A stretch of 64,000 nt of DNA from a virus: IMG/VR virus record IMGVR_UViG_3300002920_000062, positions 70,123-134,122 of that record; one strand, given 5' to 3'. The notes under the pieces were generated by a model. It searched no databases. It was given only the letters and a program-made list of their open reading frames with translations, and was not told the DNA's origin. Below, in pieces: positions 1 through 50,029 of this stretch (the first letter of the stretch is position 1; every line of letters starts with the position of its first letter). A program made the position numbers and the translations under genes.

Positions 1-1307
1 ATATGACAGGGGGGAAGAGCCATATGGTCAAGTTCGGACACATTCCAAGCTGACAAGATGTGTCTACGACCATTTGGATCAGTTTTAATACCCTCAATTA
101 AGTTTGAAAGTTGGTCTGTGTAGAATTTTTGCCTCCATTTGTATCCAGGAGTAGGATTTTCTTCTGTGATAGTCCACTGTCCCCAACGTTTTTTTCCATT
201 ATTTTTGGTAGGATCATCAAGTCCCTTTGCCCAGTTCTTTAAGAACGACGGGTTAGTGTATTTAAATACTTTACCTGTAACGTTATTAGTTGCAATAAAC
301 AACTTTCCTGATTTGCCAATTGGATTGTTCAGAATATAATTATTGTATTTTTCAGGTAAAAATATAGTAGTTTTTTTACTATAGCAATCCGCAGAATAAT
401 AATCTTTATCTAGTGTATACGATGGGTCATTGACCCAGTTTCTGAACCCTACTAGACCATGTATATCCCGATAAAAGTTAGCAAAACACCTCCAATTACT
501 GTCTACAAAAATACCAGCTTGCTTATAATATAGGGTCTTGCTCGGGTCACTACCGTGACATCTTTCCATCATATTTTGCCACAATTTATAAGCTCGGTTA
601 AGATATTCAGATTTTTTTTCTACAATGCCATAGCATCCTGTGCCATTTGCTACTGACATTGAGTATGGATTTTTTAAAGTTCCTGTTCGGATATTAGATC
701 TAGGAACTTCGCATATTGTTCGTATTCCTGTTGTAAACTGAATCTTGTAATAAGAATTACCGTCCCGTACGTCTAATTTAGATAACACAACATACGGTTC
801 TCCCTGTTTGTTTTTTCTATGAGTACCAACTAGGTCATCGCCGTTTGGTTCATCGGGTTTTATTAAGTCAATTTCAAGATGAAAGGGAGAGTTGTCACCT
901 AAATTGGTTTTTTCTTTGACAAGGGTTACTTCTGTTTGCCAGTTCTGTGATTCCCATGTTCTCCATCCAACACCGTATATTCTGCCCAAATCTCCGGGGA
1001 ATTTTGCTTTAGTTTGCCAATAAGCTGCTTGAGCATTTCCTGTCCATATCGTATTATATTTTGTATCTCTTGAGTGGTGTAAAATTTCTGCAAGTCTTCT
1101 CTCATCGTTACTTCCTTCTATAAACCACAATAACTCACTAACTACAGACTTCCAAGCTAACTTCTTGGTTGTTATAGCAGGGAAACCTTCTTGTAAGTTA
1201 AACCTAATCTGTCTACCAAATACAGCTAGAGTCCCCACCCCTGTCCTGTCTTGACGTAGTTCCCCGTTTGCTAAGATATCCTTAAGAAGAGCGTGGTACT
1301 GCTTCAT
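1..1307 (-). CDS. thyA: Thymidylate synthase (partial, continues past window start) with internal endonuclease-like insertion
   Basis: Not in the ORF track because its stop lies outside the window. Hand translation from ATG 1307 gives MKQYHALLKDIL..DRTGVGT..FPAITTKKLAWKSVVSELLWF..GDLGRIYGVGWR and, in the same frame, DQLSNLIEGIKTDPNGRRHILSAWNVSELDHMALPPCH (catalytic Cys at 6-8). It lies directly downstream of DHFR. Confidence 0.97.
   Translation of the reverse strand, partial: MKQYHALLKDILANGELRQDRTGVGTLAVFGRQIRFNLQEGFPAITTKKLAWKSVVSELLWFIEGSNDERRLAEILHHSRDTKYNTIWTGNAQAAYWQTKAKFPGDLGRIYGVGWRTWESQNWQTEVTLVKEKTNLGDNSPFHLEIDLIKPDEPNGDDLVGTHRKNKQGEPYVVLSKLDVRDGNSYYKIQFTTGIRTICEVPRSNIRTGTLKNPYSMSVANGTGCYGIVEKKSEYLNRAYKLWQNMMERCHGSDPSKTLYYKQAGIFVDSNWRCFANFYRDIHGLVGFRNWVNDPSYTLDKDYYSADCYSKKTTIFLPEKYNNYILNNPIGKSGKLFIATNNVTGKVFKYTNPSFLKNWAKGLDDPTKNNGKKRWGQWTITEENPTPGYKWRQKFYTDQLSNLIEGIKTDPNGRRHILSAWNVSELDHMALPPCH
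117..953 (-). mobile_element. In-frame HNH-family homing-endonuclease-like domain inside thyA
   Basis: 279 codons with no stop between WRTW and DQL. Motifs GTLKNPYSMSVANGTGCYG, AYKLWQNMMERC, WRCFANF and YTLDKDYYSADCYSKKTTIFLP are typical of phage HNH-type endonucleases. Exact insertion boundaries are uncertain. Confidence 0.8.
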
Positions 1308-1308
1308 G

Positions 1309-1755
1309 TTATTTTCTTCTCCAAATTTGATAGTCATGGTCTTCAAACTTTTCTTCTGAAACCATAACAAAATCATTATACAAAACATTCAGATCAATGA
1401 ATGTGTCACACTTGTAATCTTTTTTTACTAGCGTTAGATGGACCTCGTTGATATAACACCAGTGTGTGGAAATTATTTTGGCCCCACCTATCAACCAATA
1501 AAAATCAGGGTAATTATGTAAGCAGTCTACACAAGTTACATTTTCATGTTTAAACGGTTTGCTAGTTACTACAATATTATTACGATTAGGCAAAGGCTTA
1601 ACGGGTAAACTTTCCCAAGTATTTCTTCCCATAATTACAGGAAAATTACCAGTTAGCTTTTTAAATCTAGGTAAGTCTCCCTTGATATTTTTACAAGGGA
1701 GACTGTTTTTGTAACCTATTCCACCTGTTTTAGTTGAAGCAACTATCAGCTTCAT
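1309..1755 (-). CDS. folA: Dihydrofolate reductase
   Basis: Motifs GIGYKNSLP, VIMGRNTWESLPVKPLPNRNNIVVT, WLIGGA and CDTF; adjacent to thyA. Confidence 0.97.
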   Translation of the reverse strand: MKLIVASTKTGGIGYKNSLPCKNIKGDLPRFKKLTGNFPVIMGRNTWESLPVKPLPNRNNIVVTSKPFKHENVTCVDCLHNYPDFYWLIGGAKIISTHWCYINEVHLTLVKKDYKCDTFIDLNVLYNDFVMVSEEKFEDHDYQIWRRK

Positions 1756-3433: not shown

Positions 3434-4768
3434 TCACTTTTCATGTTCATCGTAATATGCGTAGGTGCCATGGGGCGGGATGATATCTCCTGAACCATAA
3501 ATAATCCAAGTTGTATCCGTATAGTCCGGATCTCCCCAACGATGACAATAGCCGTCAGTGAAGATGATAAGACGAGTAGGAACCTCGCCCACTTCCTTGA
3601 GATAATTGTAGATACAATCAAAGTCAGTACCACCCCCACCCATCAGGTCGTACTCCTCAATGTTTTCCATGTTCTCGGAAGTAAATTCTTGGACGTTATA
3701 TACTTTGGTGTCAAAAGTGCCGACCTTGAGCTTGTAGCTATCAAATGCATCCATCATGCCTGCAACTTCGCTGATAAACTGCATACCCTGCTTCCGGCTA
3801 ATAGAGCCTGACATATCAATCATGACCATAACGTCAATTTCCTCACCGGGGGTCATACCAGGCATAATCGCGTCCATATGCCAAGAACGCCTTGACGGGC
3901 GCATCCAAGAATAATTGGTCTTGATAGCCGAAGTGAGATTGGTCTGAATCAACTCACGCCACGGCATAACAGGTTCAGTAAGCTCCTGAATAATTCGACG
4001 AATTCCGGCAGGAACATCACCGGGATTTTTCTCTTGCTGTATAGCCGAAATCATCGCCTGAATAAGCTCTTGGCGGGCTTCCTCAAGATCTTTGTCAGAC
4101 ATTTTCGGACGATTGTCGCGTTGTTCGTCGTCCTCACCACCGTCCTCTAGGATATCGCCGTCATCGCTGCCGAGCTTGTTCTGGCTGACCTGTTGCCGGC
4201 TTTCATCATCATCTCCTTCATCGAGGTGATGGTCAATCATCTGTCTAATCAAGGCATTGAAGTCAATCTTGTTGGCATTCTTCATGAGGTCGTCATAGAT
4301 AGCCTCAGAAGTCATGCCATGGTACTTCTTGTCATAGAGACAAGGAACAGTGGTAATCATTTCACCAATACGGTGCTGATAAAGGTCAGCATTAACCGCG
4401 AAGTCAGCGGCGATATTCCAAACCATATGGTCTCGGTGTGCCTTACGACCCAAGTGATCATAAACAACGTGAAGCAACTCGTGACCAAAAAGAAACTGGA
4501 TTTCCTTGACACGAAGCATGTTGATGAAACGGCTATTGTAGTAGAAATTCCTGCCATCGGTTGCAGCAGTAGAAAGCCAATCGTCACTATTGACAAGCTT
4601 CAAACGAACAGCAAGGTTACCAAAGAACGGGGAACTCATAAGCATAAAAGTGCGCGCAGTAATCATCTTTTCACGCGCCTCATAGTCTACACGACTATCA
4701 GTAGGACCAATGAGATTATCAAGCTTATCATTGCGTTCGCGCTTTGATGCAGTAGTATTGCTGGCCAT
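3434..4768 (-). CDS. Metallopeptidase-like (HExxH) plus vWA domain protein, partner of MoxR ATPase
   Basis: GHELLH motif, AATDG, MIDAS-like IDMSGS, GGGGTDF, IIFTDG; next to a MoxR-type ATPase. Confidence 0.9.
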   Translation of the reverse strand: MASNTTASKRERNDKLDNLIGPTDSRVDYEAREKMITARTFMLMSSPFFGNLAVRLKLVNSDDWLSTAATDGRNFYYNSRFINMLRVKEIQFLFGHELLHVVYDHLGRKAHRDHMVWNIAADFAVNADLYQHRIGEMITTVPCLYDKKYHGMTSEAIYDDLMKNANKIDFNALIRQMIDHHLDEGDDDESRQQVSQNKLGSDDGDILEDGGEDDEQRDNRPKMSDKDLEEARQELIQAMISAIQQEKNPGDVPAGIRRIIQELTEPVMPWRELIQTNLTSAIKTNYSWMRPSRRSWHMDAIMPGMTPGEEIDVMVMIDMSGSISRKQGMQFISEVAGMMDAFDSYKLKVGTFDTKVYNVQEFTSENMENIEEYDLMGGGGTDFDCIYNYLKEVGEVPTRLIIFTDGYCHRWGDPDYTDTTWIIYGSGDIIPPHGTYAYYDEHEK

Positions 4769-4793
4769 ATAAACTCCTGTTGTTAATGTAACT

Positions 4794-4822
4794 TGTATAT
4801 CAGTTTCCGACTTTTACGTCAA
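4794..4822 (-). promoter_or_regulatory. Sigma70-like early promoter for the vWA gene (second copy ~5520-5548 for the chimeric gene)
   Basis: Minus strand TTGACG-N17-TATACA, followed by AGGAG RBS and ATG. Confidence 0.7.
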
Positions 4823-4840
4823 GTGTTTTTACAGAACATG

Positions 4841-4871
4841 AAAGAAATAATGGGGGACTAAACCCCCCATT
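4841..4871 (-). terminator. Rho-independent terminator (second copy ~5567-5598)
   Basis: Minus strand AATGGGGGG-TTTAGT-CCCCCATT hairpin followed by ATTTCTTT. Confidence 0.7.
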
Positions 4872-4918
4872 TAATAGAGCCGAAATCCCCGTCGCTATCT
4901 TCAGGGTTAGTCCTTGAG

Positions 4919-5494
4919 TTAAATATACTTGCCGTAATTCTCAGTAAGACGACCCATCGCAGTCAACCGGCGTGGGTCAACGGGGAACTTATAAGGGAAT
5001 AGGTAAACATTAAGGGCAATCTTAGCGCCCAGAATAACCAGTTCTTCCTCGAAGTTGTCCATCATATAATTCAAGAAGTTGTCGAACATCTTGTGAAACT
5101 CTTCATTATCGAAGTTATCGCTATTGAGATAATCACGAAGTTCGTTGCACATAGAAACAATAAGAAAGTACATTACAAAAATATCCCTGGTGTTGAGTTT
5201 CTTTACCTTGCCGGTCAGAATGTCAATGGGCTTGGGCATATGACAAGCAATGTCAATATTTTCATCCTGGATAAGGTCACTAGCGTGATTGGTCTGAATC
5301 AACTCACGCCACGACATAACAGGTTCAGTAAGTTGCTTAACAATTCGATGAATGCTGACGGGAACATCACTGGAATTTTCCTCTTGCTGTGCATAAAAAA
5401 TCATCGCCTGAACAAGCTCTTGGCAAACTTCATAGTCTACATTGTCAAGCTTATCATTATATTCGCGCTTTGATGCAGTAGTATTGCTGGCCAT
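4919..5494 (-). CDS. Chimeric vWA(N-terminal fragments)/MoxR(C-terminal) protein
   Basis: Begins MASNTTASKRE like the vWA gene, contains QELVQAM..LTEPVMSWRELIQTN (vWA), then SDLIQDENID and HMPKPIDILTGK..LTENYGKYI (MoxR). Confidence 0.85.
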   Translation of the reverse strand: MASNTTASKREYNDKLDNVDYEVCQELVQAMIFYAQQEENSSDVPVSIHRIVKQLTEPVMSWRELIQTNHASDLIQDENIDIACHMPKPIDILTGKVKKLNTRDIFVMYFLIVSMCNELRDYLNSDNFDNEEFHKMFDNFLNYMMDNFEEELVILGAKIALNVYLFPYKFPVDPRRLTAMGRLTENYGKYI

Positions 5495-5633
5495 ATAAAC
5501 TCCTGTTGTTAATGTAACTTGTATATCAGTTTCCGACTTTTACGTCAAGTGTTTTTACAGAACATGAAAGAAATAATGGGGGGACTAAACCCCCCATTTA
5601 ATAGAGCCGAAGCCCCCGTCACCGTCGTCAAAA

Positions 5634-6731
5634 TTAGTCCTTGAGGTAAATATACTTGCCGTAATTCTCAGTAAGACGATCCATCGCAGTTAACCGGTGT
5701 GGGTCAACGGGGAACTTGTAAGTCTTGAGGGCAACCCTAACGCCCATGATAACCAGTTCCGTTTCGAAGTTGTCCATCATATAATTCAAGAAGTTGTCGA
5801 ACATCTTGTGGAACTCTTCGATATCACGGTTATCGCTATTGAGATAAGCACGAAGTTCATAGCACATAGAAACAGCAAGCGAATACATCGCCGAGATTTC
5901 CTTGGTCTTGAGATTCTTTTCCTTGCCGGTCAGAATGTCAATGGGCTTGGGCATATGCTGGGCAACCTTACGATGAGCCATGAACTTGACAGCAAGACCA
6001 TCGCCAACAGCACCCGAAACTAGGGTAAGTAGGGTATTCTTATCGATATTGTCGTCCTGAATCAGGTCGCTAACGAAAGTCCACGAACGCGGAGTAGCAA
6101 ACGCACGACTCGAAGACTTGGCGTCGAAGTCATACAGATCCTGCTTAGCGAACGAGAGATAACCAACAACGTCCTTATGGATGCCCTTTTCAATGGCCCA
6201 TTCTTGCCAGCTTTCAAAGTCCGGCCTCATTTCAATGTGGATAAATCGATTAGCAAGTGGCATGGGCATACGATAAGTAACTCCCTTGTCACTATCCCGA
6301 TTACCGGCCGCGATAATCACAACGTTGTCGGGAAGAACATACTTGCCAACGCGACGATTTAGAACCAGCTGATAACCAGCAGCCTGAACCGCGGGAGGAG
6401 CAGAGTTCATTTCGTCAAGGAAAAGAACAACGACGGGATACTGATCGGCAAGTTCTTGCGAAGGAAGGTCAACAGGCTCGGCCCAATCCATCTTGACGAT
6501 TTCCTTGTTATAGTAAGGAATACCACGAATGTCAGTAGGTTCCATCTGAGCCATACGAAGATCGACCATGACACCGCCAAGCTCATTGGCAATGCTTTCA
6601 ACGATCTCACTCTTACCGATGCCCGGAGGGCCCCAAAGGAAGACAGGACGCTTTGCCCGGAACGCAGTTAGAATGGCCTTACGGGCCTGTACCGGAGTAA
6701 CGGTGTGATTTTCAGAAATCTTTGACGACAT
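5634..6731 (-). CDS. moxR: MoxR-family AAA+ ATPase
   Basis: Walker A WGPPGIGKS, Walker B LFLDE, AAGNR, LANRF, FATPRSW; upstream TTGACT-N17-TAGAAC promoter-like site. Confidence 0.92.
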   Translation of the reverse strand: MSSKISENHTVTPVQARKAILTAFRAKRPVFLWGPPGIGKSEIVESIANELGGVMVDLRMAQMEPTDIRGIPYYNKEIVKMDWAEPVDLPSQELADQYPVVVLFLDEMNSAPPAVQAAGYQLVLNRRVGKYVLPDNVVIIAAGNRDSDKGVTYRMPMPLANRFIHIEMRPDFESWQEWAIEKGIHKDVVGYLSFAKQDLYDFDAKSSSRAFATPRSWTFVSDLIQDDNIDKNTLLTLVSGAVGDGLAVKFMAHRKVAQHMPKPIDILTGKEKNLKTKEISAMYSLAVSMCYELRAYLNSDNRDIEEFHKMFDNFLNYMMDNFETELVIMGVRVALKTYKFPVDPHRLTAMDRLTENYGKYIYLKD

Positions 6732-46317: not shown

Positions 46318-47193
46318 ATGACAAACATAAGAAAACAGAAAAAAGTAAACTACCTAAACAACAAAGACATTCTAAAAGAAATTCACAAAAGTAAAACATC
46401 ATATTGTTCTTTCGTTAACCCAGACTATCATCAATACGATATCATTATTGACAAACCAGATTTACCATTATCTAAATCACTTGAATTTGCCCTTAAGCCT
46501 ACGCAAATAAAACGGGCTAAAGAGAACAGGGCAGCTAGGTTGTCTATGGAAACTGAAACAAAAGTAAACCCAAAAGACATACCAGAAACAGAATTGATTT
46601 TTAGAGTGATGACCTGGGAACATGTGCCAATGTCACAGAAAGTTCCTAAAAAATCACAACCAAAGAAAACAGCCAAAGATATTATTGATTTTGACTTCAG
46701 TATCGACGAAGAAGTTGATTCAGATATTGACCTAGATGATGAAAACTTAGTATATGAAAAAGTAAATTTCCCTCCTTTTCAGCATTTTAAACTTGATAGC
46801 GAAAGAAATTTTATATGCGTAGGTAAGAGTCACTGGATAGGTGACATGGAAAACGGATATTTCAGTAAAGATCACGGGCAGATAACTGACAAGCTTGCAA
46901 GAATCTTCATGATGCTTTGTGAGAAGTATTCAATGAAATATAATTGGAGGGGATATACTTACCGAGATGAAATGGAAGCTAGTGCGATTCTACAGTTAAC
47001 TTATGTCGGTCTACGTTTTAACGAAGCCAAGAGTTCTAATCCGTTTGCTTATTATACACAAGCTGTCACCAACAATTTCAGACGAATTCTAAACATTGAA
47101 AAGAGAAACCGAGCCATTCGTGACGAACTTCTTGAAGCTAATGGTTTAATGCCATCCCTCTATCGTCAAATGAGTGACTACGATAAAAAGTAA
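46318..47193 (+). CDS. gp55: Late sigma factor, gp55-like
   Basis: VNYLNNKDILKEIH, YNWRGYTYRDEM, FNEAKSSNPFAYYTQ..F.RILNIEKRN; upstream of gp47/gp46 as in T4-like phages. Confidence 0.85.
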   Translation: MTNIRKQKKVNYLNNKDILKEIHKSKTSYCSFVNPDYHQYDIIIDKPDLPLSKSLEFALKPTQIKRAKENRAARLSMETETKVNPKDIPETELIFRVMTWEHVPMSQKVPKKSQPKKTAKDIIDFDFSIDEEVDSDIDLDDENLVYEKVNFPPFQHFKLDSERNFICVGKSHWIGDMENGYFSKDHGQITDKLARIFMMLCEKYSMKYNWRGYTYRDEMEASAILQLTYVGLRFNEAKSSNPFAYYTQAVTNNFRRILNIEKRNRAIRDELLEANGLMPSLYRQMSDYDKK

Positions 47194-48909
47194 TCATTCT
47201 TCCAAACGTACACTGCATTACCAGAATCCCAATAACGATTCCATTTTAAGTGTTTCATAATATCCCATTCACTCCCCAAATGATGTAATTCTTTGGGGAG
47301 TTTATGTTTCTGAAACTTGACACGACTGTAGATTTCGCTCAAGTTACGAAAATACCAATAATTAGGATTAGTATAATGCGAAAATTCAAACCCTAATTTC
47401 AAGTACACCCCACCCTTTCCCCAGTTCAAATCTGCATATGAAACAACTGATAATGGAGAGTGTTCTTTGACAAAAGAAGAAAACAACTTACTTGCTGCAC
47501 CAGGTATTGAATATCCATTCTTTACTGAAAATCTTGTTATTTCATATTCATAATTTTTAGAAAATCTAGTCTTAGAAAACCCCATAACAGCATATAATTG
47601 ATCTTCATTGTCGACCAATCCATAATTAAATTTAGAATTGATTCCACTTTGAAGATGGTTTTCGTCAAAAAACTTTTTAGCAACTTGATTATTAACTATG
47701 ATAACTTTCAGCTTTCTAGCAAACAGTCTATTAGGATTTTTTTGCATTGCGTTCAAAATTCTTGCTTTTACTATATTTTCTTTAAATAATAAATCTTGTT
47801 CGAACACTTGTAAAAGAGTTATACCCTGCTCATCACATTTCTTGAATTTATTCTTATGATAGTTTCTGTCTCTACCGGCTAACTCACTATGCCAATACAA
47901 GCCGTTAAATTCAATAGCAAGTTTTAATGAGGGTATATAAAAATCAAGTTGATATGGAGAAATTAATTTGTATGTTCCATTCATATTCTATATTAAGTTC
48001 ATCCAACCACGATTTAATTAATGTTTCTCCCCAAGACATATGTGTGGGGTTGCATTCTGGACAAGCCCTGTTGTTTGCATTTCTAAAAGCTTCAAAAAAT
48101 TCATTATTACAATTATTACATTTCCAAAGCAAGAGGTCTTCTGATTTAGCAGTAGCATATTGTTCTCTGGTAAATAATGGAGTTATTTCTGTTCGGGACT
48201 TTAGTAACTCTACTAACATATTATTCTTGCGGGTATGCTTCCCCTTATTGTATATTTCTGGATTTTGAAAAGGGTGCTCTGTGCCATACCTTTTCAGGCA
48301 GGTCTCTTTAGTTGTTTCCTTAACTATCTGGTTTTTGGCTGGACGATCTACCCCATATCTCTTTAGAAAAGTTTGTGTTGTTTTTTGACATATTCCTTTA
48401 CTTTGCTGAGGCCACTCTACACCGTTGTTGACCAAACAAGTTTGTGATGACTTTTTCAATATTTCAGCATTTTGGGTAGGTGACTTAGTTCCATATCTTT
48501 GATAACAAGTTTTAGCCGCTTTGTCTTTTATTTCTTGTAGCTGGCTTATATGTTCAACACCATATAATTTCTTTACTGTGTTTTTCCTCTTTTTGGTAAT
48601 TTGATTTTTGTCAGCGGTTTTCCAATATTCTTGCTTTTCTTTAGCATTGCAAGGACAGCTACCAATATTCCCACAGAACTTGCGATAACCTTTAACTATA
48701 CCAGAATACGTTTTTTCTTTGTTACTTATGCTACAATAAGCAACTTCAATATTGTAATTGTTCAAAAAAAGATATGCCTTTCCAGACAATGAAATATCAT
48801 ATGGGTATAATTCATCCAACTCTTTTTTGAATTTTTTAGCTTTGAATACATACTCTATCGCCGTTATCAATCCTTGATGATATTTTTCTTTGATTTCACT
48901 TAATGTCAT
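47178..48909 (-). pseudogene. Free-standing Hef-like homing endonuclease split by a frameshift near 47970
   Basis: Two overlapping ORFs join into repeats YG(V/T)..P.Q, zinc ribbon WKCNNC..CPEC, SWGETLIKSWL and LDFYIPSLKLAIEFNGLYWHSE..FFDENHLQ..YADLNWG..WDSGN. Probable start MTLSEIK at 48909. Confidence 0.75.
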
Positions 48910-49012
48910 TGCTAACCCTTTTCTTATATCTATACCCAAACACCATACTATTATTTCTTTTTGGATAATAAAGTCGTTTATATTTGAAATATAATATAAT
49001 ATAATTATAGGT

Positions 49013-50029
49013 ATGAGTAATTTATTTAAGAAAGCCGCTGTATTTACCGACATTCACTATGGGTTAAAGTCAAACAGTATCACCCACAACACCGACTGTG
49101 ACAATTTTATTGACTGGTTTATTGAAAAAGCCAAAGAAAAAGGATGCGAAACATGCTTTTTCCTAGGAGACTATAACCACCACAGAGCAAGTATCAATAT
49201 ACAAACTCTACAGTTTGGTCTCAGGGGATTAGAAAAGCTTAGTAAAAGCTTTGATATAGTTTATTTCATCCCAGGAAACCACGACCTCTACTATAGAGAC
49301 AAACGTGATATTCACAGCGTCGAGTGGGCTAAACATCTTCCTAACGTTCAAATCATCAATGATTGGTTTATTACTAAGGATGTGGTTATTGCTCCCTGGT
49401 TGGTTGGCGACGATTACAGAAAGCTCCCCAAGCTTGAAGGAAAGTATCTGTTTGGTCACTTTGAAATCCCGAACTTCTATATGAACGCACAAGTCTTGAT
49501 GCCCGATCACGGGGAAATCAAAGACACGCATGTTTCCAACTTTGAAACTGTATTCAGTGGACACTTCCATAAACGCCAAACCAGAAACAATATATGGTAC
49601 ATAGGCAATGCTTTTCCACACAACTATGCAGATGCAGGTGATGATCAAAGGGGAATGATGATACTTGAATGGGGCAAAGAACCAGAATTTTATTCTTGGC
49701 CCTACCAACCCTTATATAAAGTTTATAAACTAAGTGAAGTTTTGGACAATCCTGACAAATTACTATTTCCGAAAAGCAGCGTACGAATTCATTTAGATAT
49801 TGATATTTCATACGAGGAAGCAAGTTTTATTCGTGAGACACTGATGCCAACTTATTCAATCAGAGAAATGTCGCTTATACCAATTAAGTCAGATCAACAT
49901 ACTCAAGACCTAGCTCCAGGAGAAATCAAGTTTGAAAGTGTAGATCAAATTATTATTGACAGCCTATCTGTTATTGATAGCGATTATTTCGATTCTAAGC
50001 TATTACTTGATATTTACCGAAATTTATAA
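49013..50029 (+). CDS. gp47: Recombination nuclease, gp47/Mre11/SbcD-like
   Basis: FTDIHYG, FLGDY, PGNHD, LFGHFE, FSGHFH metallophosphoesterase motifs. Confidence 0.95.
   Translation: MSNLFKKAAVFTDIHYGLKSNSITHNTDCDNFIDWFIEKAKEKGCETCFFLGDYNHHRASINIQTLQFGLRGLEKLSKSFDIVYFIPGNHDLYYRDKRDIHSVEWAKHLPNVQIINDWFITKDVVIAPWLVGDDYRKLPKLEGKYLFGHFEIPNFYMNAQVLMPDHGEIKDTHVSNFETVFSGHFHKRQTRNNIWYIGNAFPHNYADAGDDQRGMMILEWGKEPEFYSWPYQPLYKVYKLSEVLDNPDKLLFPKSSVRIHLDIDISYEEASFIRETLMPTYSIREMSLIPIKSDQHTQDLAPGEIKFESVDQIIIDSLSVIDSDYFDSKLLLDIYRNL

Follow-up and report, generated by a model that had tools for sequence, protein, structure and literature searches.

A putative non-canonical HNH nuclease lodged in frame within phage thymidylate synthase, with signs of mobility and no detectable splicing element

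We analyzed a 64,000-nucleotide stretch (the window; positions 70,123 to 134,122) of IMG/VR virus record IMGVR_UViG_3300002920_000062, a 179,497-bp record that is about 52% complete, focusing on its thymidylate synthase (TS) gene, thyA, which carries a large in-frame insert (Table 1). The gene starts at window position 1307 on the minus strand and stays open up to the window edge, as the first-pass annotation of this DNA had read it; in the genome sequence (G000 C1:71429-69768) it is a stop-free frame of 553 amino acids. The same annotation counted 279 codons between the WRTW and DQL motifs, which proved exact: they lie between W118 and D398 (window 953-117), and the three motifs it named within them are all present. 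W118 and D398 align to W101 and D110 of E. coli ThyA, and the insert stands in place of an eight-residue loop (E. coli 102-109). All 129 distinct insert-free viral alleles have a short loop here (fewer than about 35 amino acids), as had been supposed, and its length varies greatly among them; it is therefore a naturally tolerant position.

Alignment with 25 free-standing homologues indicated that residues ~159-381 correspond to a whole stand-alone gene, leaving linkers of 40 and 16 amino acids that are partly low-confidence and exposed in the AlphaFold2 (AF2) model. In that model, the N-terminal linker probably forms one side of a β stalk, by presumed strand pairing. The insert matched four PHROG HNH families (best phrog_2081, E 4e-24), and the family profile aligned to the intron-encoded nuclease I-HmuI (PDB 1u3e) from a helix around residue 96 to the C-terminus (E 1.8e-5). 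The NUMOD-like tail was recognized by PF22083 in 17 of 26 family members, and a Pfam search of the insert found no family at E<=1, hence no HINT match. The best fold match of the insert model was a generic SH3/Tudor-like barrel (best Z 5.6); a sequence search with the insert profile gave no match. Invariant residues of the core are a Trp, Arg-Cys, Asp-Lys-Asp, a Tyr and an Asn, and D300, K301, D302 and N322 are conserved without exception in 14 close fusions and the 25 free-standing homologues. Judged from these profiles, the insert is a putative non-canonical HNH nuclease with Lys in place of His.

Table 1. Features of the thyA locus, in window coordinates (aa, amino acid residues of the 553-residue product).
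Feature	Window position	Strand	Basis or remark
In-frame insert, 279 aa (aa 119-397), in the loop between W118 and D398	117..953	-	alignment to E. coli ThyA
N-terminal linker, aa 119-158	834..953	-	predicted strand at 127-131
SH3/Tudor-like β barrel, ~aa 153-210	678..851	-	matches N-terminal domain of free-standing homologues
HNH-like nuclease core, aa 239-322	342..593	-	D300, K301, D302 at window ~410-402; N322 at 344-342
NUMOD/I-HmuI-like C-terminal DNA-binding domain (predicted), aa 334-381	165..308	-	assigned from family profile
C-terminal linker, aa 382-397	117..164	-	ends with conserved Arg-x4-hydrophobic strand ahead of DQ; terminal Asn of intein type absent
Codon 114, Gly for conserved Gln (E. 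coli Q97)	966..968	-	within smallest shared tract (P0003/P0004); candidate self-protection change
Tract near-identical at base level with P0002, ~aa 106-416	60..992	-	insert plus co-converted thyA flanks
thyA N-terminal half, aa 1-118	954..1307	-	contains R21, E58, Y111 (= E. coli Y94)
thyA C-terminal half, first part, from D398	1..116	-	R414, R415; catalytic C434 at window 8-6; runs on to G000 C1:69768
Dihydrofolate reductase (DHFR) gene	1309..1755	-	directly upstream of thyA; TS partner in dTMP cycle

The enzyme around the insert appears intact. The AlphaFold check proposed in the first pass returned two halves that fold as a normal TS (TM 0.89 to E. coli TS). All catalytic residues (ThyA R21, E58, Y94, R126/127, C146, H147, R166, S167, D169, N177, H207 and Y209) are kept in all 14 close fusions, the query included. 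Purifying selection acts on both TS halves (omega ~0.06-0.17) and on the HNH core (omega 0.13-0.19). An apparent loss of conservation at residues 526-535 was an artefact of the search pattern used. This thyA is the sole TS on the contig, where ThyX was looked for and not found; calling it an essential gene is nevertheless an assumption, because the host's own thyA might make up for its loss and so much of the genome is missing from the contig.

The query is one of many such genes. The 13 close fusions found first (45-90% identity in the insert) bring the set to 14 with the query, and a profile search of a representative library yielded 92 TS fusions of at least 440 amino acids, these 14 included. 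Together with six cultured-phage proteins there are ~98 divergent fusions, open through both junctions, nearly all of which end at the DQ/NQ position. A strict pattern mapped 62 of them cleanly to both junctions, with inserts of 166-283 amino acids. Cultured carriers include Escherichia phages UE-S1 and ph0011, Klebsiella phages KP13-7 and phiKp_21, Bacillus phages Kioshi and 015DV002, and Tenacibaculum phage PTm1; fusions were also found in metagenomes, and a scan of GTDB genomes with narrow patterns found no carrier. GenBank annotates such fusions merely as thymidylate synthase or HNH. Members of the same nuclease family occur in 918 GenBank phage records, among them free-standing genes beside nrdF; KIL-type Pseudomonas phages also have free-standing relatives. 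One Lys-type member interrupts polA of Staphylococcus phage phiSA_BS2 (L329:2311-3399); this interruption is unannotated and carries group I P7 motifs that Rfam missed.

Some copies are decayed, having lost 53-79 or more amino acids in frame from the nuclease with the linkers spared; one such pair is otherwise 99.6% identical. The in-frame deletions within the insert of P0032 (compared with P0175/P0176) and of P0030, P0050, P0051 and P0134 resemble mini-intein-style decay. A broken thyA (L327:2763-3956, and L328) retains the 5' 74 profile positions, then the nuclease, then only the last 30 TS positions. Its stalk-bearing nuclease is read in a different frame from a start of its own and has apparently survived the loss of its host gene; it is the one frameshift or escape case seen, in a protein search that under-samples frameshifted copies. 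Four further TS fusions, P0094 (676 aa), P0137 (875 aa), P0139 and P0063, have additional large insertions elsewhere in the C- or N-terminal half and are possibly doubly invaded genes.

Sequence exchange among thyA genes centers on the insert. The inserts of the query and P0002 differ at silent sites by a pS of 0.20, whereas their TS halves have diverged to 0.61 and 0.76; for P0003 and P0004 the corresponding values are 0.11, and 0.54 and 0.78. The tract shared by P0003 and P0004 is tighter than that of the first pair, running from about codon 113 to 399 with the altered codon 114 inside it. On a TS tree with insert and flanks removed, insert state had to change 10 times, and grouping the carriers as one clade was rejected (p-AU 1.1e-11, with the long-branch L068 left out) in a set whose insert-free members were gathered by similarity to the query and are thus not a random sample. 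The trees also conflict: P0002 groups with the query by insert, but with P0003 by TS. Outside a cassette of ~aa 91-435, UE-S1 is ~94% identical to insert-free 121Q-like relatives. Within the cassette it resembles KP13-7 (mostly 76-96% identity), a phage of another genus in which the sequence flanking the cassette matches RaK2 and K64-1. Compared with the insert-free phages 000TH008 and 015DV004, B. subtilis phage 015DV002 is near-identical apart from the insert and a stretch of ~50 codons downstream of it that runs through the catalytic Cys, and presence of the insert is patchy among near-identical phages. This patchy distribution, the lateral transfer at a fixed site and the apparent co-conversion form the pattern of a homing element, and the comparisons indicate that the insert is mobile between thyA genes, replacing flanks as it moves.

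The cassettes of UE-S1, KP13-7, ph0011 and phiKp_21 (L152, L153, L157, L158) also import a foreign TS active-site segment, with Met/Ile before the catalytic Cys and Met for Gln before Arg-Ser. Phage ph0011 has a second, different cassette in the same phage genus.

Just upstream of the insert, the motif Gly-x-x-Tyr-Gly-x-Gln-Trp is kept in 128 of the 129 insert-free alleles and in none of the 14 close carriers, six of which have changed the Gln and eight the first Gly (seven different substitutions overall). The query's Gly for Gln at residue 114 is the change the first pass had read as YGVGWR in place of a YGVQWR-type motif. Among the 62 cleanly mapped fusions, the motif is kept in eight. The broken motif of the carriers fits self-protection.

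No hallmark of splicing was found. Intein termini (Cys/Ser start, His-Asn end, Cys/Ser/Thr at +1) were sought in the 62 cleanly mapped fusions and not found: most inserts begin with Glu or Pro and end in Ile or Val, no nucleophile is conserved, and an Asn/Gln-[CST] pair occurs in one of the 62. The nuclease coding region leaves only 120 and 48 nucleotides of the insert at its two ends. The group I J8/7-P7 motif was found in no carrier, with both intron control regions positive; junction folding was unremarkable (z 1.2 and −0.4), no junction bases were conserved, and silent-site conservation in the insert (0.447, vs. 0.40 and 0.43 in TS) was near background. Rfam scans gave no intron match, but they also missed the positive intron controls and carry no weight, so that exclusion of an intron rests on the P7 and silent-site tests. 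A nuclease encoded out of frame was rejected, since the other five frames contain 15-32 stops with a longest open stretch of 71 amino acids. Thus, the first-pass observations that intein boundaries are absent and that a group I core lacks room hold across this wider set, and its proposal of splicing-free lodging in a tolerant TS loop gains computational support from ~98 members without an intein or intron hallmark and from the intact TS fold.

We consider it likely that the insert is a permanently fused homing nuclease: one unspliced protein, TS plus nuclease, would cut insert-free thyA, and repair would copy the insert together with a resistant flank. In this scheme, a free-standing phage homing-endonuclease gene would have lodged in frame in the length-variable ThyA surface loop, and a single 553-residue protein would be made and remain unspliced. 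The TS halves would fold around the loop, the two short linkers serving as a stalk that carries the nuclease as appended extra domains. During co-infection, the fused nuclease would cut or nick insert-free thyA near the loop, for the query element probably in the conserved Gly-x-x-Tyr-Gly-x-Gln-Trp codons. Recombination repair would then copy the insert plus some flanking thyA, and the carrier would be immune because insertion and the changed flanking codon destroy the site. The unspliced product, the TS activity of the fusion, the cleavage and its site are what we infer from the gene comparisons above. TS is a homodimer, so the host enzyme would present two nuclease modules, and one may speculate that the dimer scaffolds paired nicks.

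Several points weigh against a permanently fused, active nuclease. The Asp/His-His...Asn catalytic set of HNH enzymes is incomplete: Asp300 and Asn322 are invariant, but the position of the general-base His, in a register deduced from the motif, is occupied by an invariant Lys301. The first-pass assignment to HNH-type endonucleases thus stands on profile homology and not on the full catalytic set. We looked for a characterized enzyme of this Lys-type subfamily and found none; Twort ORF052 (presumed I-TwoI), tried as a candidate, gave no match. The modeled nuclease core is of low confidence (pLDDT 33-58 over much of the region), and fold searches of this low-confidence insert model against the PDB returned no HNH fold match and listed no HINT. 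A host thyA could mask a weak fusion enzyme. The motif changes in the carriers are inherited with the cassette, and because they travel with it they count as at least two events, not fourteen; they could also be structural accommodation. Finally, 015DV002 retains the upstream motif while its downstream flank is replaced. The first-pass suggestion that flanking codons are altered for protection therefore describes a systematic trait of the close carriers, but does not extend to 015DV002; different lodgers probably target different sequences nearby.

Alternatively, the element may home while its nuclease is released, by linker proteolysis, non-HINT excision or internal initiation, so that enzyme and nuclease become separate chains. 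The exposed, partly low-confidence linkers would allow this, codon 174 of the query and of P0002 is a GTG preceded by a Shine-Dalgarno-like word, and the stalk-bearing L327 copy has its own start inside a broken thyA. However, in a comparison of 12 genes neither an internal start codon nor a ribosome-binding site proved conserved, the junction residues vary without a conserved nucleophile, and HINT profile matches are absent; we regard release as unlikely.

Lys in the HNH His position, and the persistence of members that have lost parts of the module, would also suit a catalytically dead or domesticated DNA-binding appendage that owes its spread to ordinary recombination or to some advantage for the phage rather than to its own cutting. 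This seems quite improbable, given that fused and free-standing copies alike keep the putative metal ligands without exception, exchanged tracts center on the insert with sharp edges, presence is patchy among near-identical phages, and the neighboring motif is broken only in carriers (one of 129 free alleles excepted). Still less probable is that insertion cripples TS, the phage depending on host thyA and the gene surviving mainly as a nuclease vehicle. The L327 relative did delete most of thyA while retaining the nuclease, and Q114G alters a conserved residue three positions from Y111, but both TS halves are under purifying selection with catalytic residues intact, and the only TS on the contig sits next to DHFR, with no ThyX found there. 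A cryptic self-splicing intron with a core open by chance in the thyA frame, for which one could cite the apparent group I intron housing the same nuclease family elsewhere and the insensitivity of Rfam to such phage introns, is scarcely credible in view of the 120 and 48 available nucleotides, the missing P7 motif, the ordinary junction folding and the unconserved junction bases and silent sites.

If the fused-nuclease reading is right, intact fusions that combine an active TS with an active Lys-type HNH nuclease and its own resistant flank would be a third widespread lodging strategy beside introns and inteins, a broader claim that we favor with some reserve. A literature search for a ThyA-nuclease fusion found no description, within limited coverage of subscription journals. 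The nearest likenesses are in phage DNA methylases. The ShiLan-domain insertion of actinophages (PMC9957025, PMC11855218) is, like the ThyA insert, mobile, with the host frame open, an HNH nuclease and no detectable intein or intron. There, however, the HNH is read in a different frame, from its own start to its own stop, and what the host frame yields is predicted to be a disordered loop. In ThyA it is the nuclease that is read in the host frame, is under selection and forms a folded insert, and the host is an enzyme of central metabolism that many phage families carry. The lone LAGLIDADG of Taj-type phage methylases (PMC9957025) is likewise in frame without a splicing domain and predicted to fold separately, but it belongs to another nuclease family and is known from nine related sequences without strong evidence of transfer, for which the authors could not reject one clan; the ThyA insert has evident mobility and flank co-conversion across ~98 lineages.

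Free-standing phage homing endonucleases that practice intronless homing (T4 seg/mob; PMC2988022) also lack a splicing element and rely on break repair with flank co-conversion. The T4 seg/mob-type nucleases are separate genes, whereas the ThyA insert remains part of one unbroken host chain and sits at, or right beside, its presumed target. Insertion of mobE in Aeh1, by comparison, splits nrdA into two chains. Yeast WHO elements (10.1101/2020.01.20.913210) show non-splicing homing too, replacing part of the target gene upon allele-specific cleavage, but each is a separate, intein-derived gene that sits downstream of FBA1 rather than within a host protein. Selfish nuclease genes have invaded TS genes as group I introns in td/thyA (T4 I-TevI, I-BmoI, Bacillus phage Bobb; PMC4528723) and as actinophage TS inteins (10.1101/2025.01.02.630785); unlike the ThyA insert, these splice, at the RNA or protein level, and mostly encode GIY-YIG or LAGLIDADG enzymes. 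I-HmuI-type intron HNH nickases share the helix around residue 96 and the C-terminal domain with the insert family, which differs in having Asp-Lys-Asp for Asp-His and an extra SH3-like domain and in not being intron-borne. IPA-HNH proteins of ICP1-like phages (Barth et al., 2023; PMC10448857) combine an N-terminal HNH-like domain with a C-terminal AP2 domain; a search of the insert for AP2 gave no match, and the tail of its relatives is I-HmuI NUMOD-like in the 17 of 26 noted above, which places the insert outside that group. By analogy with these systems, the ThyA insert would act like intronless homing and be lodged like an intein minus the splicing domain.

As for the wider genome, among cultured phages the TS is nearest to that of enterobacterial jumbo phages with genomes of 340-360 kb (~70% across the C-terminal half), and promoter and terminator scans were at chance level. 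A MoxR-type AAA ATPase and a DUF2201 metallopeptidase/vWA gene form a pair at window 3434-6731 (minus strand); between them a 191-residue open reading frame (ORF; 4919-5494) has the same first residues as the vWA gene and no Pfam match. Adjoining SbcCD-like genes at window 47178-49053 (minus strand) are two overlapping opposite-strand ORFs, a DUF7487 protein and a 268-residue protein without a Pfam match, which we take to resemble Vsr-like homing endonucleases. Outside the window (G000 C1:142567-145520, 154295-157079 and 167140-170175), ribonucleotide reductase and helicase-like genes are apparently in pieces, some with intein-like end motifs and nuclease-like ORFs close by. The genome looks rich in mobile inserts.

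A homing endonuclease within a conserved gene is usually viewed as harmless only by virtue of RNA or protein splicing. In two sets of near-identical cultured phages, one member carries the insert and its relatives lack it (B. subtilis 015DV002 against 000TH008 and 015DV004; E. coli UE-S1 against 121Q), which makes our reading directly testable, and the fusion would provide the first characterized member of a large Lys-type HNH subfamily. The family also flags a source of error for thyA-based phage phylogenies. A full life cycle is visible within it, from free-standing relatives through recent invasions and in-frame decay to one escape from a broken thyA. With ~98 lineages, the ThyA family suggests that protein-level tolerance suffices and is common.
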